From a virus (taxonomy: Duplodnaviria > Caudoviricetes): a DNA stretch of 64,000 bases. The translations under genes were made by a program, and so were the position numbers. This document shows, piece by piece, positions 1 to 9,737 of the stretch (its first letter is position 1; every line of letters begins with the position of its first letter). The stretch covers positions 9,246 through 73,245 of the IMG/VR virus record IMGVR_UViG_2751186034_000001; one strand, 5' to 3'. The notes beneath the pieces are model-generated. The model saw only the letters and a list, made by a program, of their open reading frames with translations. It made no database searches and was not told where the DNA came from.

Positions 1-685
1 CATCCGGCCGTGCGAAATGTCGTCGCACGCCGTCAAGCAATTCGGAGGATGCGCTGCCGTCGCCCTCCCTGGACAGTACCGTGACCATGACTTCACCTGG
101 AGCGGTGCGCCGCGCATTGCCATCCTTGACTTGGGCCGCGTAACCGTCCGGGTCGAAGGTGTAGCTGACGGTAACCACGCCGGGAGTGGCGCTCTGCACC
201 TTGACCGACGGCCGTTCACCCAGGGTGAAGACCTCGCGTCGATACTGCATCCGCGAGCCTGCCGCCGGTGCATGGGGTGCCAGGTAGTAGCGCAGACGGG
301 CATCGTCGTCGCTTTCCAGAATGGGTGGTATCGGCGGGAATGCGGCCGGGTCGCCAGGGTCGAGGACTTGGCGTTCCAGCCCCATGTCGGCAAGGCGTGC
401 ATCCAAGTTGCTGCCGGTTGCCCACCACGCCAGCATCTGCTTGATACGGGCGTTGTACTTGCGTTCATGGGTTTGCAGGCGCACGCAAAACGCTTCCAGG
501 GCCAGGGTCAATAATTCGCTTTCATTGTCCAGACTGGCTTTGAGTTTGGGCGCGCTTTGCGGCGCACGGGTGGCCACGTAATCGATGACGAACGCCTTGA
601 ATTCCGCCAACAACGGCTCGAACGCCTCCACGGCAATAAGCGTCGGCTCCGCCAGTTGGTTCTGGCCGGGGATCAACATGCTCAT
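1..685 (-). CDS. Tailocin baseplate J-like protein (partial, runs off the left edge)
   Basis: Manual translation from ATG at 685: MSMLIPGQNQLAEPTLIAVEAFEPLLAEFKAFVIDY...QMLAWWATGSNLDARLADMGLER. ATGA overlap with the gpW stop; gpV-gpW-gpJ order. Confidence 0.85.
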   Translation of the reverse strand, partial: MSMLIPGQNQLAEPTLIAVEAFEPLLAEFKAFVIDYVATRAPQSAPKLKASLDNESELLTLALEAFCVRLQTHERKYNARIKQMLAWWATGSNLDARLADMGLERQVLDPGDPAAFPPIPPILESDDDARLRYYLAPHAPAAGSRMQYRREVFTLGERPSVKVQSATPGVVTVSYTFDPDGYAAQVKDGNARRTAPGEVMVTVLSREGDGSASSELLDGVRRHFARPD

Positions 686-1014
686 GTCACGACCTCGAAG
701 GTTTGTTGACGGTTTTTCCAGGAGCCGGCAAAACGCAGCAACAAACCAGCGCCTTGCCGCGTGGCGACGATGACCTCGGGTTGAAAATCGGCGATGCCAT
801 TCTGGGTGTTGTAGAACGCCTGCGCGGCATGGCTCTGGGCGAGGATCAGCAGGTCGTCGCCCAGGTTCTGACCAAGCAATTGCGGGATCATCGAACCGTA
901 CAGCGGGCGCTTCTGGCGAGTGCCTATGGGAGTGGTCAGCGCTCGGGTGGCGCGCTGTACGAACTGCAGCCAGTCATCCACGGCTGCCCCGGTGTTTCTA
1001 TCGATTCCGAGCAT
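682..1014 (-). CDS. Tailocin baseplate wedge protein (gpW/gp25-like)
   Basis: 110 aa, MLGIDRNTG...LTTPIGTRQKRPLYGS motif, located between gpV and gpJ. Confidence 0.85.
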   Translation of the reverse strand: MLGIDRNTGAAVDDWLQFVQRATRALTTPIGTRQKRPLYGSMIPQLLGQNLGDDLLILAQSHAAQAFYNTQNGIADFQPEVIVATRQGAGLLLRFAGSWKNRQQTFEVVT

Positions 1015-1023
1015 GGCAGATCC

Positions 1024-1635
1024 TTATGCGCTGCTGATCACACGGCCCTGGTGATCCACCACCGGGCCACTTAAATGCACTCCGCCGGCATCCAGCCGCA
1101 GGCCGGTAGCCCCCAATTGCAGGGCAATGCTGTCGGCCGTCAGTACCAGGCTGGCGGCGCCGACCTGTGCGAAGACCTGCTCCCGTGAGCCCGTGACGGT
1201 GGTGGGTCCGTTGCGCCAATTGAACAGGTGAGTGGCATCGTCGTAATCGCTTTGCGTGCCGTCCTGATAAAGGCGACGCGTCAACGTCGCCACACGGGAG
1301 ACAGGCGGAAACTGACTACTGTTGAGGCCGAACAAGGCCACGGACTGCGTCCCCCCTTCTCCACCTGCATAGTTGAGCAGCAGGCATTGCTCGCCCACAG
1401 ATGGGATGCGGGTTTCCGTCTGCGCACCGGCGCTGGGGTTGAAAAAATGAATGGCCGGGGTGAGCAAATCGCCATGCCGAACCTTGCATGTGTGGCTGGC
1501 GGCATCGACTTCCTCACATACGCCAATCCGACAAAAACTGTCGGCACGGCGGTACAGGTCTTCGAGCTGGGCCTCCATTTGCGCCAGGCGCTCGATGATC
1601 GGCCCCAGATGCATGCGTAGTAACGCGTCAAACAT
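1024..1635 (-). CDS. Tailocin baseplate spike protein (gpV-like)
   Basis: 203 aa; OB-fold N-terminus, PSVGEQCLLL motif, YDDATH beta-helix region, C-terminal His. Confidence 0.9.
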   Translation of the reverse strand: MFDALLRMHLGPIIERLAQMEAQLEDLYRRADSFCRIGVCEEVDAASHTCKVRHGDLLTPAIHFFNPSAGAQTETRIPSVGEQCLLLNYAGGEGGTQSVALFGLNSSQFPPVSRVATLTRRLYQDGTQSDYDDATHLFNWRNGPTTVTGSREQVFAQVGAASLVLTADSIALQLGATGLRLDAGGVHLSGPVVDHQGRVISSA

Positions 1636-1638
1636 GGT

Positions 1639-2154
1639 CTACTCCTGCAGAGGTCGATATTGATCGGGATCGTCGATATTCGAAACTTCCCAGGTGCAGG
1701 CAAACAGCGGTTTACCCGTAGGATCTTCGAGCAGCGGCGGCCCCAGATAGAGCGTTTGGCTGAAGGCCACCGTCCAGGTGTCGTAGTCCGTTTCGCTGGA
1801 GCCCAGAACGGAGGGTGCTGCCACAATGGCCATGGGCAGGTCGCATTGTTCGGCCGGCAGCCCCCAGCGGTTGTCTAGGGCCAGATCCATCAGTTGGCTG
1901 GCCAAGTCGCAGGCGTCAAAGGGCGCCGCACCGCTGGCAACCGTGACTTTGAGAGACACCGACAAGGCATGCGCCTTACGCCCGTCCAGGGCGCGTATTC
2001 CGGGGCCGTTACGCTCCACGCCGATCAAAATGCCGCTGGCATCCGTGGCGCCGTTGAAATCCTGGTGATTGCCCACCCGCAGGTGCGGGAACGCCAGCTT
2101 GAGCGTTTCTGCGATCGCGATGGGCAGTTGGGAAGGTTTTTCGATAAGTGTCAT
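1639..2154 (-). CDS. Tailocin conserved protein (tail completion/terminator-like)
   Basis: ORF between holin and gpV as in R-type tailocin clusters; start chosen at MTLIEK. Confidence 0.6.
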   Translation of the reverse strand: MTLIEKPSQLPIAIAETLKLAFPHLRVGNHQDFNGATDASGILIGVERNGPGIRALDGRKAHALSVSLKVTVASGAAPFDACDLASQLMDLALDNRWGLPAEQCDLPMAIVAAPSVLGSSETDYDTWTVAFSQTLYLGPPLLEDPTGKPLFACTWEVSNIDDPDQYRPLQE

Positions 2155-2175
2155 AGGGTCGCGTCCTTGCAGCAA

Positions 2176-2520
2176 TTACTGCTGATCGGGCCGCGAAGTC
2201 GGCGTCTGGTTGACCCCGATACGCTTGGCCGCCCAGCGTTCATAAAGACCGATGGCTACGTCGGCCCCCGCCATGGCGGTGAGGCAGCCGATGGCGCCGG
2301 CAGTCCAGATCGACATGCCGGCGGCGTAACACAGCATCAGGGCCGAAACCCCGCACACCATGCACGCGCCAGACCTCAAGGCCAGGCGCCGGATCAACGA
2401 CCAACCGCGGGCGCCCTCCTTGTCGGCGCGCCACATTTCGCCGGATACCCCGCCGATCAAGGCCAGTGCAATCACCAGCCAGATAGGCATTTCCGCTAAC
2501 GCTTGCTGCTCGTTTGTCAT
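2176..2520 (-). CDS. Tailocin holin
   Basis: 114 aa from MTNEQQ, three hydrophobic segments, first gene of the tailocin operon, RBS AGGAGG upstream. Confidence 0.85.
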   Translation of the reverse strand: MTNEQQALAEMPIWLVIALALIGGVSGEMWRADKEGARGWSLIRRLALRSGACMVCGVSALMLCYAAGMSIWTAGAIGCLTAMAGADVAIGLYERWAAKRIGVNQTPTSRPDQQ

Positions 2521-2594
2521 ATCACGCCTCCTGGCTGAGCAATGCCGGCTGAATGCCGGTTTTCCGGATAAATCCATTTATAGGTAGGCATTCC

Positions 2595-2619
2595 AAAAAG
2601 CCCGGTTGCCCGGGCTTTT
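2595..2619 (-). terminator. Intrinsic terminator ending the tailocin leader, upstream of holin
   Basis: Minus strand AAAAGCCCGG-GCAA-CCGGGCTTTTT. Confidence 0.8.
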
Positions 2620-2951
2620 CAGTAATGCTGTCCTCGAACCTTCGGCGCTACTGGCGCGGTACGGTTCTTTCCTCAATGTTTTTCCGACCACGATCCCTGT
2701 CTGCCGGATAACTGCTTCTGGTGCTTTACGCTGCACACCCGGGTCAGTTGCCAACCCTCTGAACCGTTAAGGCCGGTTCATCGCTGCCTGTTTCTTGTAA
2801 AGCGGTGTCACTAAAGAGCGTCGGCATCCTTGCCGGTATTGCCTGCCATCCCTGCCATCGCTGTGATGGCGTCCTTGCCGATGTTGCTTGCCTTCCTTGT
2901 CATCCTTGGCAGCATCCTTGCCGCCTCCACCAGGCCTTGTTGGCTGGCTTG
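2595..2951 (-). ncRNA. Putative ~355-nt tailocin leader RNA/sRNA with clustered CA(A/G)GGA hairpins (Rsm/Csr-type) and a boxA-like motif
   Basis: Bounded by a sigma70 promoter and a terminator. Five CAAGGA and one CAGGGA in 2827-2920, three in hairpin loops. CGCTCTTTAG at 2811-2820. Confidence 0.55.
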
Positions 2952-2957
2952 AGATGA

Positions 2958-2986
2958 AGAATATGCATGTATGCATATACAGTCAA
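2958..2986 (-). promoter_or_regulatory. sigma70 promoter of the tailocin operon
   Basis: TTGACT (2986-2981), 17-nt spacer, TATTCT (2963-2958). Confidence 0.75.
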
Positions 2987-3030
2987 TGCGTAAATGCATT
3001 TATTTTCACTCAGGATATGCTCATGTGCAT
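2963..3030. promoter_or_regulatory. Three ATGC-N6-GCAT palindromes (candidate PrtR operators)
   Basis: Exact palindromes at 2963-2976, 2986-2999 and 3017-3030; a fourth copy lies at 3889-3902. Confidence 0.65.
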
Positions 3031-3073
3031 TTTTGGCTTGGCGATTCAAGGGGTTACTGGCTTTTGGCAGGCG

Positions 3074-3101
3074 AAAAAAAACCCGCTGCTTGGCGGGTTT
3101 T
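3074..3101 (-). terminator. Terminator of prtR-like gene
   Basis: Minus strand ACCCGC-CAAGCA-GCGGGT followed by a T run. Confidence 0.8.
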
Positions 3102-3117
3102 GTCCTACTGAATTGGG

Positions 3118-3852
3118 TTAACGCGCGTACATGCCCCACCAGAACACATGGCCGAGGATACTGATCTGCTCGTCCTGGATTTCCTGGAAACTGTAGTCCT
3201 CGTCCGGATGCTCGTCGCGATTGAAGCTGCGCAGACGAATCCGGGATGGCAGGCGATAGAGCTGTTTGACCCGCAATTGGCCATTGTGATTGATGGCATA
3301 CAGATCGCCATCGACGATATCGCCGATGCCGCTCTTGCCCGCATTGACCCCGACGGTTGCGCCATCGCGCAGCACTGGCAACATGCTGTTGCCGCGCACC
3401 GTCACACACTTGGCCTGGTCGAATTGCACACCATTGTGTCGCAAGCTGCGCTTTCCAAAACGCAGGCTGGCTTTCTCGCTTTCCTCGATGACGAATCTTC
3501 CTGATCCAGCAGCCAATTCAACCTCGCGCAGAAAGGGGATCGACACCTCATCGTCATTGATAGGGGTGTCGTCGTCCCACAGGCTTATGTCCTTGAGTTC
3601 CGAATGCATCGGGTCGCGCCCGTCGTCCCGCGCAGCGCCTACGGCCACGCGCCCGCGCAGTTGGTCGGTGCTCACGCCAAAGTATTCGGCAATGCGGGAG
3701 ATATGCTTGTCAGACGGATCGACAATCTTGCCGCTGAGGATCCGAGACAGCGTGGACTGAGGCACACCGGTACGCCGGTGAAGCTCCGTTGGGGAGATCC
3801 GGTCGCGGTCCAGCAATTCTCTTAATACGATAGAAACGTTGCGTTTTTGCAT
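3118..3852 (-). CDS. prtR: PrtR-like tailocin repressor (XRE HTH + S24 autopeptidase)
   Basis: HTH (SPTELHRRTGVPQSTLSRIL), AAGSG cleavage site, GNSM serine and RVKQL lysine; divergent from the original mutS start. Confidence 0.85.
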   Translation of the reverse strand: MQKRNVSIVLRELLDRDRISPTELHRRTGVPQSTLSRILSGKIVDPSDKHISRIAEYFGVSTDQLRGRVAVGAARDDGRDPMHSELKDISLWDDDTPINDDEVSIPFLREVELAAGSGRFVIEESEKASLRFGKRSLRHNGVQFDQAKCVTVRGNSMLPVLRDGATVGVNAGKSGIGDIVDGDLYAINHNGQLRVKQLYRLPSRIRLRSFNRDEHPDEDYSFQEIQDEQISILGHVFWWGMYAR

Positions 3853-3888
3853 AACGGCGATAGTGCCGGGTGTTTTGCAGCTTGGCAA

Positions 3889-3902
3889 ATGCTAATTTGC
3901 AT
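3889..3902. promoter_or_regulatory. ATGC-N6-GCAT palindrome upstream of prtR (autoregulatory site candidate)
   Basis: ATGCTAATTTGCAT matches the three sites at the tailocin promoter. Confidence 0.6.
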
Positions 3903-4072
3903 ATTTTATGCACAGGTCGCGCTGTATCAGGGGCAGCGTCTCTGCGTTTTGTACACCGGTTTGCAACCTGCGAAGCGCCGACTTCACATGTTAACCTTGC
4001 GGCCATTGCAATAAGCAGGGCCGAGCGCCCCACCTTTGCCCCACTCCTTTCAACGAATTTGCTAACTATCTG

Positions 4073-4168
4073 ATGAGTAAGAACACGTCCGATCTGTCCT
4101 CCCACACCCCGATGATGCAGCAGTATGGGCTTGATCGATGCGCAAGCCACGTTAGGCGGGGCTTTTAA
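4073..4168 (+). pseudogene. mutS: Stranded native 5' end of mutS, fused to phage DNA
   Basis: Encodes [18 protein letters not shown] then [25 protein letters not shown] is identical to the MutS N-terminus at 61421. Confidence 0.9.
4102..4125 (+). repeat. attL core
   Basis: CCACACCCCgATGATGCAGCAGTA, 23/24 identical to 61438-61461; perfect 14-bp core ATGATGCAGCAGTA. Confidence 0.9.
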
Positions 4169-4175
4169 GGTTCCT

Positions 4176-4251
4176 CTGTCTAAAACCCTAGCGTCATTTT
4201 GGAGGCTTTAGGGGCAATAAAACCGGGTTAACGGCAGGCAGTATTAGACAG
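4176..4251. promoter_or_regulatory. Candidate integrase arm-type sites inside attL
   Basis: CTGTCTA (reverse complement TAGACAG) at 4176-4182; AGTATTAGACAG at 4240-4251, also present at 61368-61379. Confidence 0.6.
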
Positions 4252-4338
4252 TGAACCCCCCCCCGGCGTCCTGCCGATCTATATCAAATCCCAAGCTTCA
4301 AACGGCTGCTAAGCTGGTCACTCAAAAGAGGAAAAAGC

Positions 4339-4548
4339 ATGCCGAATTCAGACCTACTCCCCTCCCTGGTTACCAAGCTCTATGAAAATCAGCTGGCACT
4401 CGAAGCATCGATCATGGAGCTATCAAACTGGGTGGAGCAACGCGGCTCCGCTGAGGTCGCTGCGAATGTACGCGGCGCACTGGACACGCTCAGTCACAAT
4501 GAGGAATTCATCAAGCTCACATTGGCGGTGTTGATGTCGCCAGAGTGA
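4339..4548 (+). CDS. Hypothetical phage protein (69 aa)
   Basis: ORF with GAGGA RBS and helical composition. Confidence 0.6.
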   Translation: MPNSDLLPSLVTKLYENQLALEASIMELSNWVEQRGSAEVAANVRGALDTLSHNEEFIKLTLAVLMSPE

Positions 4549-4595
4549 CGCCATACAGCTCGTCGCTTCGAATCGCATCAGTGGCAAAGCTGGAT

Positions 4596-4615
4596 TACTG
4601 TATACACATACAGTA
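4596..4615. promoter_or_regulatory. LexA (SOS) box
   Basis: TACTGTATACACATACAGTA, near-perfect CTGT-N8-ACAG consensus, 20 bp upstream of the ORF at 4636. Confidence 0.85.
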
Positions 4616-4635
4616 AAAAATAAGCAGTCACTCAC

Positions 4636-5361
4636 ATGCCCCCTACAGAACTAAAAAAGGAATGGCTCGCCAAATGGCGGAGAATCCTCGACGACAACGC
4701 GTCCCGGATCGATAACCCCGAAGCTCATCGAATGATGTGCCGTTGGGAGACTCGTGACATGTTAGAGGCAGGGGTCATCGATGAGATGGAAAAATTTGAG
4801 ATGGATGAGCTGGCCGACGCGGCTTACTGGCATGCCGTTGAAGAGCTGGTCACCACACCTGCGGGATACACGTATGGCGGCTACTATGACGTCATTCAAC
4901 GAGCAACATCGGAGTGCGTCGGGTACATCCGAAGCAACACCTATTACTCAGCGCTCGGCCCAGGTGCTGATGGGTTTGATGGAAAGGTGTTTCGCGACAA
5001 GAATGATTTGCGACTGGTGTTCCGCAACGACAACCAGACTTGGGCGATAAATGGGTTGTTGCTTACCGCGCCATCTGGTGAGCTGTACGATCTGGTACAG
5101 ACCGCGCAATTTATCTATGGGCAGGTCTACCCAGTTATCTGCGATGCCGATATCTACCGTGCGCTGGTAGATTGCGCACAGGTCGCCTTGGAGAGCCGCG
5201 ATTTTGAGAGCTATCGCAAGGCCCGTCCTCTACTGCTCTCCGCCCAGTTCACCAAGTGCGGTGCCTGCCTGGACCGATTCGGACAGCGCGAAGATTGCAG
5301 CAACTGCACAGGTAACGGCTTTGTCAGTACAGCTGGCACTCAGCCGACGTCGTCCGCATAA
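4636..5361 (+). CDS. SOS-regulated hypothetical protein: N-terminal small helical domain, C-terminal CxxC-CxxCxGxG zinc finger
   Basis: 241 aa; CGAC...CSNCTGNG at the C-terminus; N-terminus aligns with the ORFs at 5340, 44247 and 45375. Confidence 0.7.
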   Translation: MPPTELKKEWLAKWRRILDDNASRIDNPEAHRMMCRWETRDMLEAGVIDEMEKFEMDELADAAYWHAVEELVTTPAGYTYGGYYDVIQRATSECVGYIRSNTYYSALGPGADGFDGKVFRDKNDLRLVFRNDNQTWAINGLLLTAPSGELYDLVQTAQFIYGQVYPVICDADIYRALVDCAQVALESRDFESYRKARPLLLSAQFTKCGACLDRFGQREDCSNCTGNGFVSTAGTQPTSSA

Positions 5362-5549
5362 CCTGCAACAGCCTCCTCGACCAGCTCGCGCCATTCTCCG
5401 CTGTCGATCACGCCTCGCTCCAACATGTTGTCGGCCAGTGCGAGGCGCGTTTCATAGCGATACTCAGGGCCGCCTGCCGTGAATTCGGCGTCATTGAGCA
5501 GCGCATGCCACGCTTCCATCTCGTTGACCTTCTGTATATCAGTTGTCAT
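5340..5549 (-). CDS. Small hypothetical protein (paralog family member)
   Basis: 69 aa with W...PE..Y...ADNMLERGVIDSGEWRELV motif; divergent from SRAP. Confidence 0.65.
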   Translation of the reverse strand: MTTDIQKVNEMEAWHALLNDAEFTAGGPEYRYETRLALADNMLERGVIDSGEWRELVEEAVAGYADDVG

Positions 5550-5632
5550 GACGAATCTCCGGTGCCGGTGTCTACAGTGTAGAGATCGGCCGGCGCGCGG
5601 CTGTTCATCAAGCCCGACGAGCGGAGACAGTT

Positions 5633-6322
5633 ATGTGCGGACGCCTTTCACAGTACAGCGGCATTCATGACTTCGTTGCGGCCCTCAGCATGCCGAACGC
5701 CATGGTCAACTCGGTCGGCGAACTGCCCCTGGAGCGATACAACGTCGCCCCCACCACCCAGGTCGCCGTGCTCCACGTACAGGGCGAACTCCTTTTGGCT
5801 GATCCGGTGCGCTGGGGATGGAGACCGCACTGGGCAACGGATCGCGCCGCGCCGATCAATGCCCGCGTCGAGAAAGTCGCCCACGGCCCGTTCTTCCGGG
5901 CAATCTGGCCGCACCGTGCAATCACACCAATCAATAACTGGTTTGAATGGGTCGATGAAGGCGGGCAGAAGAAACAGCCCTATCTGATCCGACGGCGCGA
6001 CGGGGCGCCGATCTACTGCGCCGCTATTGGCCAGCTACCCAACGCTAACGAAGGCCCAGGTGAGCATGACGGATTTGTGATCATCACTGCCGACAGCGCA
6101 GGCGGCATGGTGGACATCCATGACCGGCGGCCCGTGGTGCTGAATCCCGAACTGGCTCGCGAATGGTTGGACCCGGCCACCCCCAAGGAGCGCGCCGAGC
6201 AGATGGTGCTCCATCAGGGCGAGCCGGCCGAGGTGTTCGAGTGGTACAAGGTCGACACAGCCGTGGGCAATGTGCGCAACAAAGGCGAGACGCTGATAAC
6301 GCAAATTGGAGGTGTCAGCTGA
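5633..6322 (+). CDS. SOS response-associated peptidase (SRAP/YedK/HMCES family)
   Basis: N-terminal MCGR, RYNVAPT, NARVE, FEW and HDRRPVVL motifs. Confidence 0.95.
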   Translation: MCGRLSQYSGIHDFVAALSMPNAMVNSVGELPLERYNVAPTTQVAVLHVQGELLLADPVRWGWRPHWATDRAAPINARVEKVAHGPFFRAIWPHRAITPINNWFEWVDEGGQKKQPYLIRRRDGAPIYCAAIGQLPNANEGPGEHDGFVIITADSAGGMVDIHDRRPVVLNPELAREWLDPATPKERAEQMVLHQGEPAEVFEWYKVDTAVGNVRNKGETLITQIGGVS

Positions 6323-6473
6323 AAATCCACATGACAAAAAGTACGGCACTGATCCAACAGACCGTGAGAAGGATTGAGAGGCCCGCCAGTTGCTTGTCCA
6401 TAAGGCACTGTCATTTTTGAGAACAAAAAGAATGGCCTCGATTTTTCGAATACGCAACGATGACTAATAGCCA

Positions 6474-6980
6474 TTATTGCGTGATGGTCCTTACGTATGC
6501 CTGGCATGCCCGTAAAGCAATCAGTCCTCGATCCCCGTCGCCGGTGATGCCGAGAATTCTTTGAGCATGCGCTGGGTCAAGTTGGGCTCGACGGGCTGCA
6601 TGAACCACGCCGACGGCGCCGGTGGCGGTAGGCACGTTGCAGCCACCGGCTGTATCGGCTGCGTCGATAAGGACTGACAGCCGCACATCAGCAGTGGCAA
6701 GGCGATCGCGCAGAGCAGCTTGGGTACGTTGGGCATCGGTCAATTCCTTGGTGTGTTGTTGGTCCTGGATGGCCAACTGTTGCTCGGTGGCCAGGCGCTT
6801 GTCCTGCTCGGCGCGCGCTTGGGCGGAGGCAGCATTGGTGATCTCCGCCAGGTCCATCTGGTGCAGGTTGACCTGTTCGGCGAGCTTCTTGCCCATCCGC
6901 CAGTCCTGCACCTGCCAGGTGCCAGCGGCGCTAAGGACCATCGCCAGTAGGATCGCGCCCAGAATCTGCCCGGGCGTCAC
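6474..6980 (-). CDS. Rz-like inner-membrane spanin
   Basis: GTG start overlapping the endolysin stop, N-terminal TM, coiled coil, IALRACQAYV C-terminus. Confidence 0.9.
   Translation of the reverse strand: MTPGQILGAILLAMVLSAAGTWQVQDWRMGKKLAEQVNLHQMDLAEITNAASAQARAEQDKRLATEQQLAIQDQQHTKELTDAQRTQAALRDRLATADVRLSVLIDAADTAGGCNVPTATGAVGVVHAARRAQLDPAHAQRILGITGDGDRGLIALRACQAYVRTITQ
6521..6736 (-). CDS. Rz1-like outer-membrane spanin lipoprotein, embedded in Rz
   Basis: Lipobox LMCGC and a proline-rich stretch (CLPPPAPSAW), nested in the alternate frame. Confidence 0.8.
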   Translation of the reverse strand: MPNVPKLLCAIALPLLMCGCQSLSTQPIQPVAATCLPPPAPSAWFMQPVEPNLTQRMLKEFSASPATGIED

Positions 6981-7486
6981 GACATCACCCCGCCCGCCAG
7001 CCGGTACTGCTTCAGCAGATCCTCCAGGCGGTGTTCGCGCTGCCCGTATCCCGCGCCGGGCAGACTGGCCCAGATGTTCCGGCACTTCGCGATAGCCGTT
7101 TCAATCCGCCCGGCCACCACGTCGGGCAAAGCCCTGCACTCGCGTATGTGCTGCAGCGCCAGAAGGTCTTGGCTGATCGGGCTGAAGTCCGGCAGCTTGA
7201 GCAGCGCCTTGTAGTGCGGCCAGTCCTTCAGCATCTGCTGGTATCGGCCGGAAGCATTGGACGTCAGCCCCTTGCTGTTGATGACCTTCGACGCGCGCCC
7301 CTTGGCGAACGGGTGATCTGTGAAGTCCTTGAAGACCTCGGGCTTACGATCGGCTCCGGTGACGATCACGTCGTAACCGTCCATGGCCGTGGCCGGAGAT
7401 GTGCTGGTGCCCTCGGACCAGGCGAGCATGTCGAGGAACGCCAACGCGTTACGCCCGCCGGCGAGTGATTCGGAAAGTCGTGCCAT
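6977..7486 (-). CDS. Endolysin, lambda R-like lysozyme/transglycosylase
   Basis: AFLDMLAWSEGT, ASGRYQ, DFSPISQD and WASLPGAGYGQREH motifs. Confidence 0.9.
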   Translation of the reverse strand: MARLSESLAGGRNALAFLDMLAWSEGTSTSPATAMDGYDVIVTGADRKPEVFKDFTDHPFAKGRASKVINSKGLTSNASGRYQQMLKDWPHYKALLKLPDFSPISQDLLALQHIRECRALPDVVAGRIETAIAKCRNIWASLPGAGYGQREHRLEDLLKQYRLAGGVMS

Positions 7487-7501
7487 TGCTTTTCTCCAGG
7501 C

Positions 7502-7527
7502 AAAAAAAATACCCGCTCGTGGCGGGT
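7502..7527 (-). terminator. Late-operon terminator upstream of endolysin
   Basis: ACCCGC-N5-GCGGGT plus T run, continuing into GCCTGGAGAAA RBS. Confidence 0.7.
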
Positions 7528-7546
7528 GGCGGTGTTCGGCAGAAAC

Positions 7547-7759
7547 TCAAGACGCTGGTGGAGGGCTCAGCCGGTTGATGGTTGCGCGGGCGGCTGTGCG
7601 CGCCTCTTTGATGTCGTCCGGGATGGGCGTGCCATCCTCAAGCAGGGCGAAGGCATGCCAGTTGGTTTCCTTCAGGTATGCGTGGGCCTGGTCCAGGCTG
7701 ATCTCGTCCGCCAGATCCTGCGCCGTCTTGATCGGTTCAAGCTGGCTCAAATCCACCAT
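7547..7759 (-). CDS. Small tail-fibre-associated protein
   Basis: 70 aa (AYLKETNWH...IPDDIKEARTAAR), directly downstream of the fibre genes. Confidence 0.6.
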   Translation of the reverse strand: MVDLSQLEPIKTAQDLADEISLDQAHAYLKETNWHAFALLEDGTPIPDDIKEARTAARATINRLSPPPAS

Positions 7760-8117
7760 TTTCGGGTTCCTCTATAAAGGTCGGCAGTTCAACAATCGGG
7801 GCAATAGGCGGGGTTGTATCAGGGAATGGAACTGCCCCGCTTTGAATATCGATAATGATTGGCTCGGCTGGATTACGGGACTCTTCAGGGCTATCCCAGT
7901 GGACTGGAAGAAGTAGCGTAAAGTTAAGAACCCCGTCAACTCGTTCGATGTAGTCCGTATCTAGGAAGAACCGATTACCGACCGCACTACCGGGCAAACG
8001 GTATCCTGCGGGAATTCCGGATAGGTCGATAGTCTCTCTGTTAATAGTGATTACGTCACCCTTAACCGATGCCTCCAGCAGATCATTAGTCAAAAACGGG
8101 AATAACTTAATCTTCAT
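7737..8117 (-). CDS. Tail fibre assembly/chaperone-like protein
   Basis: 126 aa immediately after the tail fibre gene, with coupled overlap. Confidence 0.6.
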   Translation of the reverse strand: MKIKLFPFLTNDLLEASVKGDVITINRETIDLSGIPAGYRLPGSAVGNRFFLDTDYIERVDGVLNFTLLLPVHWDSPEESRNPAEPIIIDIQSGAVPFPDTTPPIAPIVELPTFIEEPENGGFEPA

Positions 8118-9050: not shown

Positions 9051-9737
9051 TCAGGTGCCGGGAAGTCTGGCGAATACCGCGCCGGGTGCGCCGATATTTG
9101 TCCATGGTGAGAGAGCGCTAACCCCAAACACCTGTAACCTGTTCTCTGAATAGTTGAACCTTACAGCTGATGTTAGCCAGTTTGTGTGGTTCTGTAGTAT
9201 TCCTCGCGAAAACGGATTGATCATAAAGTACTCATCAGATTGCAGTGGTGCAACAGATCCATTCGCCCAGTAGTACGCCTGTGCTGTCGCATTTAGAACT
9301 ACCTGACCCTGATATGACCATGAGTTATTGGCTCTCGTGAAGATCACCGGAGCGGCCCCTGAGTCGAAAATCAGCACGCCATTTTCGCCCCACATCCTGA
9401 GCCCATAATCGGCCTTAGTGATTGACGCGAACACCGCTGCAAACCACTTGCCTGTTGGCCTGAAGTCGATGTTCAGGGACGTTATTGAAAACCCAGTCCA
9501 AGCACCAGGACCGCCGCTAATGGTCATGCTCGTGTATAGCTCATTCGGTCTAGCCGAGCTGTTCTGAATGAATACGCACGGCGGCTCCGGCGTGGTTATG
9601 GCGGATGGGAACGACACTGACACCGATGAACTGCCGGATGCCTGATACGTTCCACTGTACAGCGCACAAAGCCTAGGTTGCTCTGAGTCTATCTGTACAT
9701 AGCTTCCATCGTTTACAACAGATAGACCGAAATTCAA
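9051..9737 (-). CDS. Tail tip accessory protein
   Basis: 228 aa with repeated YGLRMWGENGVLIFDS-type motif typical of proteins following J. Confidence 0.65.
   Translation of the reverse strand: MNFGLSVVNDGSYVQIDSEQPRLCALYSGTYQASGSSSVSVSFPSAITTPEPPCVFIQNSSARPNELYTSMTISGGPGAWTGFSITSLNIDFRPTGKWFAAVFASITKADYGLRMWGENGVLIFDSGAAPVIFTRANNSWSYQGQVVLNATAQAYYWANGSVAPLQSDEYFMINPFSRGILQNHTNWLTSAVRFNYSENRLQVFGVSALSPWTNIGAPGAVFARLPGT

Follow-up and report, generated by a model that had tools for sequence, protein, structure and literature searches.

Locus and features of the leader

The interval between a prtR-like repressor gene and a holin gene was analysed in a 64,000-nt stretch of an IMG/VR provirus record (IMGVR_UViG_2751186034_000001, positions 9,246 to 73,245; the whole stretch is called the window below), where it forms the leader of a Pseudomonas tailocin lysis operon on the minus strand. 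The leader is a composite of three modules, namely five selected CANGGANG sites, a boxA and a covarying six-hairpin RNA that is shared with lambdoid phages of Pseudomonas. The combination of an Rsm-type array and a boxA with a structured RNA, the last of which is also found at the head of prophage and conjugation operons, suggests that the leader probably sets transcription run-on into the lysis genes. Pfam searches placed the prtR-like gene on the 5' side of the leader, the holin gene on its 3' side and a baseplate gene further downstream, and the gap of about 600 nt between prtR and the holin ATG at 2520 contains no gene. An earlier note on this DNA had described the leader as an RsmA/CsrA-binding RNA with a boxA and a terminator; that reading missed the six-hairpin RNA at 2793-2588. 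The features of the leader and its flanks are as follows.

2986-2958 (-): sigma-70 promoter TTGACT-17-TATTCT, start predicted near 2951
2947-2930 (-): 5' hairpin P0, CCAGCC...GGCCUGG, counterpart of CCGG-N7-CCGG in the phage versions
2925-2822 (-): GGA array, six CANGGA and three hairpins
2920-2913, 2899-2892, 2877-2870, 2854-2847 and 2832-2825 (-): conserved CANGGANG sites in the alignment of 69 leaders
2820-2811 (-): boxA CGCUCUUUAG, invariant in 103 leaders
2793-2669 (-): core of the structured RNA, invariant GGCAGCGAUG followed by P1 to P4
2780-2760 (-): P1, core hairpin
2757-2741 (-): P2, core hairpin
2739-2720 (-): P3, core hairpin with loop GCAGCGUAAA
2708-2683 (-): P4, core hairpin
2667-2636 (-): P5 hairpin with conserved apical CGCCAGUAGCG, stem differing between members
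2628-2588 (-): P6, long hairpin with a bulged A; inner GC stem 2615-2600 and UUUUU 2599-2595
3888-3118 (-): prtR-like repressor gene, Pfam Peptidase_S24 (1e-18) and HTH_3
~3073-3100 (-): terminator of the prtR-like gene itself, directly 3' of prtR
2520-2176 (-): holin gene, Pfam Phage_holin_3_5 (3.9e-53)

Transcript of the leader

RNA-seq data from four runs of two studies each gave a single contig of 305-334 nt, with 305-318 nt lying on the leader. The contigs spanned 2626/2631 to 2933/2942 at a depth of 8-43, and Illumina adapter letters adjoined two of the contig ends. Cover of the flanking genes was about 3 over the holin in one run and nothing in the others, and 5 over prtR in one run; positions 2469-2625 and 2961-3165 had zero cover, a lack to be taken as no more than a hint. 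These silent flanks argue against DNA carry-over. The 5' limit of the contigs fits the start near 2951 predicted from the promoter, which is present on the minus strand where the earlier note had placed it, and the 3' limit coincides with the foot of P6, as would follow if the stable hairpin at the end were inaccessible to random priming. The contigs are compatible with a discrete leader RNA that, in the presumably uninduced cultures sampled, ends ahead of the holin for the most part. A discrete RNA of this kind had been anticipated, and the leader fits one of about 320-355 nt.

The six-hairpin RNA

The 3' two-thirds of the leader (2793-2588, minus strand) consist of a six-hairpin RNA, P1 to P6, which appears from the alignments to be the most widely conserved part of the leader, rather than the GGA block. 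Among 43 diverse members, 98% of the cells of the core were paired and 18 of the 26 pairs showed compensatory changes in an alignment that had been fitted to the model. None of 500 shuffles reached this level and slid controls paired at 25-51%, while an independent MAFFT/RNAalifold run found compensatory changes in 14 of the 26 pairs. The loop sequences of the core are invariant. P5 and P6 recur with different stem sequences among members, and the apical motif of the P5 type was found in 112 of 131 distinct tails. The P5 loop CCAGUAGCG may resemble the RfaH ops element GGCGGTAGCG. No Rfam family was found for the core, either in window positions 1-8000 at E values up to 10 or across the whole window at gathering score; the mir-1277/mir-3149 and Trp/Leu-leader rows returned by Rfam fall on the AT-rich operator and on the terminator of prtR and were set aside as due to chance.

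Both the minimum-energy and the centroid folds contained a 13-bp GC/AU hairpin followed by UUUUU at 2620-2595, within the longer stem of 2628-2588. The inner stem of P6 and its U run are predicted to act here as the intrinsic terminator that had been proposed ahead of the holin (hairpin 2615-2600, UUUUU 2599-2595). This hairpin was unlisted by the consensus scan, probably since its U run pairs with an upstream A run.

A fold of this kind could also be a ligand- or protein-sensing attenuator, similar to a riboswitch, that decides termination at P6 or downstream ribosome access on a signal linked to DNA damage, with the GGA sites and boxA as mere accessories. The core is of aptamer size, its loop sequences are invariant, a terminator or a Shine-Dalgarno (SD) sequence follows within about 10 nt, and termination appears efficient without induction. 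Against this, the genes downstream, be they of a tailocin, of the early region of a phage or of a type IV secretion operon, have no ligand-related function in common, and there was no Rfam riboswitch match. No consistent alternative pairing between the core and P6 was found; a candidate pairing of the 5' arm of the terminator with the P2/P3 junction (CCCGGG-type) proved inconsistent by eye in five members and was dropped. On this balance we consider an attenuator distinctly improbable.

The GGA array

The array contains six CANGGA motifs on the minus strand, at 2920-2915, 2908-2903, 2899-2894, 2877-2872, 2854-2849 and 2832-2827, all where the earlier note had counted five CAAGGA and one CAGGGA. 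Six motifs in 94 nt compare with 0.12 expected from the window-wide density (Poisson P = 3e-9). Conservation of the sites was examined by aligning 69 distinct orthologous leaders of P. fluorescens-subgroup species. Five of the six sites keep C-A-N-G-G-A-N-G, site 2 (2908-2903) being unconserved, and about half of the columns in the block are invariant. Across the five conserved sites no change occurs in 28 of the 30 specified motif columns, whereas 9 of the 10 N columns do vary, with the N position of site 5 occupied by G in 46 leaders, A in 19 and C in 4; the one-sided Fisher p of 1.9e-6 for this difference is a guide only, the columns being phylogenetically non-independent. CANGGANG is the binding consensus of RsmA/RsmE/CsrA established by SELEX (systematic evolution of ligands by exponential enrichment) and by structural work. 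The pattern appears to be under selection in five of the six sites, in agreement with the Rsm-like motif architecture suggested before. One leader of the alignment (L006, from one species) has an additional site that arose from a 15-nt tandem duplication.

Three loop hairpins had been drawn over these sites. The consensus fold of the 69 orthologues retains two of them, GGCGGC-AAGGAU-GCUGCC (2925-2908) and CGGC-AAGGAU-GCCG (2835-2822). The third, GGC-AAGGAC-GCC (2879-2868), is probably replaced by GCCAUC-ACAGC-GAUGGC (2870-2854), a stem favoured by four compensatory changes including U-A to C-G, and the fold with this stem puts sites 4 and 5 beside it. Two of the five conserved sites therefore sit in conserved hairpin loops. 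As in the class of Rsm sponges, several conserved (A/U)CANGGANG(U/A) sites are present and lie partly in loops. The first 141 nt of the leader hold six CANGGANG, compared with three CANGGA in the host RsmZ (134 nt) and two in RsmY (118 nt), neither of which contains a full CANGGANG. Binding of Rsm proteins to the array is considered likely.

Such binding raises the question of whether the terminated leader acts mainly in trans, as a DNA-damage-inducible sponge for RsmA/E/I and a local counterpart of RsmX/Y/Z, with a structured 3' part that only stabilises it. SOS induction would then flood the cell with high-affinity sites and lift the repression of Rsm targets. The five selected sites are closer to the optimum than those of the host RsmY/Z, the RNA is discrete and covered more deeply than its neighbours, it ends in a terminator hairpin as Rsm small RNAs do, and it gave a weak match to PrrB_RsmZ. 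The score of that match, 17.3 bits, is below the Rfam gathering threshold of 44 bits, so that the search gave no membership of an Rsm family. The promoter carries repeats of the PrtR/SOS type; reading of the aligned promoter gave no GacA-type upstream site, though no search aimed at GacA boxes was made. A cell about to lyse would gain little from global derepression, and the position of the array directly against boxA suggests action in cis. We consider a role mainly in trans unlikely.

More distantly related tailocin loci (P. gingeri, P. fuscovaginae and P. batumici) lack the array and have one GGCA-GCAA-UGCC hairpin in its place. In an alignment of 72 loci the promoter, boxA and about 200 nt downstream were almost unchanged in the loci that lack the array. 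From this comparison the array appears to be an insertion specific to the P. fluorescens subgroup. The core RNA has no array beside it in most relatives, in the phages or ahead of a type IV secretion operon, which indicates that the Rsm link is a lineage-specific addition and not the core function.

Two further observations concern Rsm-type elements elsewhere. One genome (G127) has a second leader copy (L148:4029-4239), with a shortened GGA block and a boxA, that precedes a Mu Com-like zinc-ribbon gene, which shows that the array can also occur away from the mutS-side tailocin. Three other mobile elements encode a CsrA-family protein within a few hundred nt after the leader RNA, its gene being the first or second downstream (L165:3638-3832(-) and L167:3444-3629(-), Pfam CsrA 1e-23 to 1e-25; L178:1206-1370(-), tblastn only), and the leaders upstream of these genes carry no GGA array. 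No CsrA gene was found in the window's own record.

boxA

The boxA-like sequence that the earlier note had reported, CGCTCTTTAG at 2820-2811, is present, and the form GCTCTTTAG is invariant in all 103 leaders carrying it. In the nearest genome the rrn boxA GCTCTTTAACAA lies 150 nt upstream of a 16S rRNA gene, and the leader boxA is identical to the first nine of its twelve letters. As in nut and rrn leaders, a boxA that agrees with the host consensus (GCUCUUUAG compared with GCUCUUUAACAA of the host rrn) stands close to the 5' end of a long operon. Leaders without the GGA array had a boxA 22-56 nt before the core in 19 of 66 cases, where chance predicts 0.006 per leader. In the window the last site of the array is two nt from boxA.

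Coding potential

The interval contains open reading frames (ORFs) of 62 and 69 aa and one of 34 aa, which runs from the ATG at 2915 to a TAG inside boxA, and any of these might encode a small protein. The frames are open in the window, a GGAGG lies 8 nt before the ATG at 2915, and the 34-aa frame is retained in 50 of the 69 orthologues. The 62- and 69-aa ORFs were rejected, as both begin upstream of the -10 element of the promoter. The 34-aa ORF is broken in the other 19 orthologues, 3 of them without the ATG, 14 frameshifted and 2 with stops, and where the N of CANGGA falls on a second codon position, that position varies freely. Minor alleles at codon positions 1, 2 and 3 numbered 100, 130 and 63, and variable columns 14, 18 and 15, so minor alleles were fewest at the third position; a conserved small ORF would have kept its frame and start and varied most there. 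The earlier note had named conservation of the ORF codons rather than the hairpins as evidence against an RNA, and such conservation was not seen. The small ORFs had no Pfam match. These comparisons mark the leader RNA as non-coding, and a small protein encoded here is very improbable.

Distribution of the core RNA

By BLAST, 225 of the 401 genomes sampled from the genus contain the core, and a single genome can have as many as four copies. A covariance model found distant members in other genera of the family and nothing credible in 150 sampled genomes of the class, where it returned two 19-bit matches only. One copy each was present in the named phages PseuP_224, Orimi01/Orisa, Medea1, Aurca01 and DVM-2008. 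The core follows cI, a terminator and a promoter directly in PseuP_224 and lies downstream of cI in Medea1, while in Orimi01 its neighbour is a divergent repressor-like gene. The phage copies thus occupy the nutL/putL position, in the pL leader, of the lambdoid map. No second copy was found in the window or in three phage genomes, and among phages recorded as P. aeruginosa phages blastn gave no match to the RNA.

Further copies lie behind S24 repressor genes and ahead of SSB/methylase genes, genes for GerE-type regulators, or a type IV secretion operon of the SLT-VirB4 kind. These contexts suggest that repressor, promoter and RNA leader form a mobile cassette that the tailocin has kept. The first gene after the RNA is not conserved and was variously a holin gene, a GerE regulator gene, a small ORF or a gene for an SLT protein. 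In several prophages a small GerE/LuxR-type regulator with an N-terminal GTWxGHLGRGL motif is the first or an early gene after the leader (L190:4234 onward, L151:5765-6151(+) and L152:3456-3923(-)); the PseuP_224 ORF at 4234 has no annotated coding sequence over it, and its family was judged from the motif only. Literature searches on tailocins with antitermination or RsmA, on put RNA in Pseudomonas and on PFLU1169 returned no description of this leader.

Promoter and neighbouring genes

The promoter is near-invariant across the 72 aligned loci and its region holds ATGCAT repeats. Its spacer contains an SOS-box-like sequence, CTGTATATGCATACAT at 2983-2968 (minus strand), of the form CTGT-N8-ACAT; this is one letter off CTGT-N8-ACAG and is kept in all aligned loci. 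From this sequence LexA might bind here as well as PrtR. The PrtR-like protein is 99% identical to a protein of Pseudomonas rhodesiae, whose genome is the nearest to the window. As had been noted earlier, the interval from prtR (3888-3118) to the holin contains no prtN-like ORF.

On the downstream side the most likely start of the holin is the ATG at 2520, rather than that at 2577, because this start (conserved as AGGAGGCGTGACATG) and its SD, AGGAGG at 2532-2527 (minus strand), are kept in nearly all of 80 related loci. The SD CCAGGAGG contains AGGA and could itself be a candidate Rsm target, and a small hairpin, CCGGC-AUUCA-GCCGG at 2559-2545 (minus strand), lies between P6 and the SD. Upstream of prtR are a gene for an SOS-response-associated peptidase (SRAP; 5633-6322, plus strand) and an Rz-type lysis gene (6474-7085, minus strand), which suggest a second phage-derived region adjoining the tailocin.

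In the P. rhodesiae genome the true rsmZ (G001:C33:336752-336885) is 4.4 kb from the tailocin leader (332214-332338) and on the same strand. The usual gene order is rpoS-rsmZ-fdxA-mutS-prtR; in the window no rsmZ lies within reach, and other phage-like genes occupy that place.

Proposed mechanism

A boxA, an RNA conserved down to its loops and the lack of a conserved partner gene, all at the head of long acquired operons, point to control of transcription elongation. The reading that we favour, with a little less than even confidence, combines these elements in cis as a gated leader, in which boxA with Nus factors and the structured RNA would provide read-through and Rsm proteins would be an added input or a titrated partner. 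The leader would be transcribed from a PrtR-controlled promoter and would normally end at P6 before the holin, so that at basal promoter activity P6 stops transcription and the lethal holin stays silent. Once PrtR is cleaved, boxA, the host Nus factors and the structured RNA would make RNA polymerase resistant to P6 and to later terminators of the operon, and read-through would occur without any antiterminator protein from the element. In the P. fluorescens subgroup proteins of the RsmA/E type would bind the array. Because its last site is so close to boxA, bound protein could block the read-through complex and could hinder its assembly until copies of the leader exceed free Rsm protein. Tailocin release would thereby be tied to the Gac/Rsm state, with sequestration of Rsm protein by the abundant terminated RNA as a side effect. 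A gated leader is favoured because the RNA-seq data argue against constitutive read-through of the put type and because no match to HK022 was found.

Published reporter data bear on this mechanism. A reporter under the complete prtR1-hol intergenic region of P. protegens CHA0 rises about 1000-fold with mitomycin C, also in strains from which the tailocin cluster or both prophages have been removed (PMC12066065). If the CHA0 region contains the leader RNA, passage through the leader therefore requires no factor encoded by the element, in keeping with the gated leader. Mechanisms besides PrtR1 are also reported to be involved in tailocin control (PMC12066065).

Several points weigh against the gated leader. 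The part of the CHA0 induction that persists in the absence of PrtR1 may be due to LexA at the SOS-box-like operator, and not to the RNA; LexA at CTGTATATGCATACAT could explain this PrtR1-independent part. The contigs give neither strand, exact ends nor levels, and the little or no cover of the holin implies that read-through is not constitutive, unlike that of HK022 put, which is also present as putL plus putR where the phages here have one copy of the core. The alignment behind the core pair counts was fitted to the model itself. About a third of the members seen have no boxA and several have no U run after P6, so not every member of the family can have a terminator gate. Finally, the array-less relatives share the promoter, core and holin, which makes the Rsm input dispensable.

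A stronger version, which we regard as rather unlikely, is a two-input RNA switch in which a polymerase-modifying antiterminator RNA of a new class, without relation to put, is joined in the P. fluorescens subgroup to a five-site Rsm array placed against boxA. If true, one antiterminator RNA would be common to lambdoid phages of Pseudomonas, tailocins and a conjugation-type operon. Tailocin suicide would follow only after loss of PrtR through DNA damage and once leader copies exceed free RsmA/E, and the induced leader would in turn rewire the Gac/Rsm regulon.

In environmental pseudomonads tailocin production does without PrtN, the activator used in P. aeruginosa. For the entry of transcription into the lethal lysis genes, a leader with a terminator, a boxA and an Rsm-site array offers concrete elements that can be mutated. 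Binding of Rsm proteins, if it occurs, would connect the SOS response with the Gac/Rsm network, which governs biocontrol traits. The structured core could be curated as an RNA family, and it marks SOS-repressor-controlled operons of phages, tailocins and a secretion/conjugation element in more than half of the sampled species of the genus.

Comparison with known systems

The leader is similar to RsmX, RsmY and RsmZ (and to RsmV and RsmW) in having several (A)CANGGA at a spacing of about 22 nt and a similar site density. Its sites lie partly in short GC-closed loops and partly between hairpins, and a terminator hairpin stands at the end. One difference is the score, since the 17.3 bits of the leader compare with a PrrB_RsmZ cut-off of 44, and with 119.7 for the true RsmZ and 125.8 for the RsmY of the nearest genome; the Rfam RsmY and rsmX models gave no match at E values up to 10 in window positions 1-8000 and nothing at gathering score window-wide. 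The leader is also under a promoter of the PrtR/SOS type that is apparently not GacA-dependent, heads an operon, is found with its array in the P. fluorescens subgroup only, and has that array fused to a boxA and a 200-nt structured RNA. By its motifs the array resembles those of RsmX/Y/Z, yet by score and promoter type it does not appear to be a family member.

The lysis cluster alpBCDE of P. aeruginosa is controlled by a LexA-like repressor in the AlpA system, with a terminator between the promoter and the lysis genes. The present locus differs from the AlpA and PrtN systems in having no alpA- or prtN-like gene.

As with putL and putR of HK022, the core lies in an early-left operon leader just after the repressor gene, there is no N-like protein, and the structured RNA possibly acts in cis on RNA polymerase. 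Homology to put was rejected, as the best match of the model in the whole HK022 genome (filters off) was 7.3 bits (E = 0.38) and not at a put site. The core has six hairpins compared with two, is often joined to a boxA, which put does not need, and its read-through is apparently not constitutive. Lambda nutL and the rrn leaders share with the present leader a boxA followed by RNA hairpins, in nutL likewise in a pL-type leader, and the long hairpin before the first gene has a parallel in the RNase III site of the lambda N leader. Unlike lambda nutL, the leader has no N gene or conserved first gene, its RNA part is far larger than boxB, and boxA is missing in about one third of the members seen. 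The core thus shares neither a fold with put nor a protein partner with nut, yet it sits where put and nut sit.
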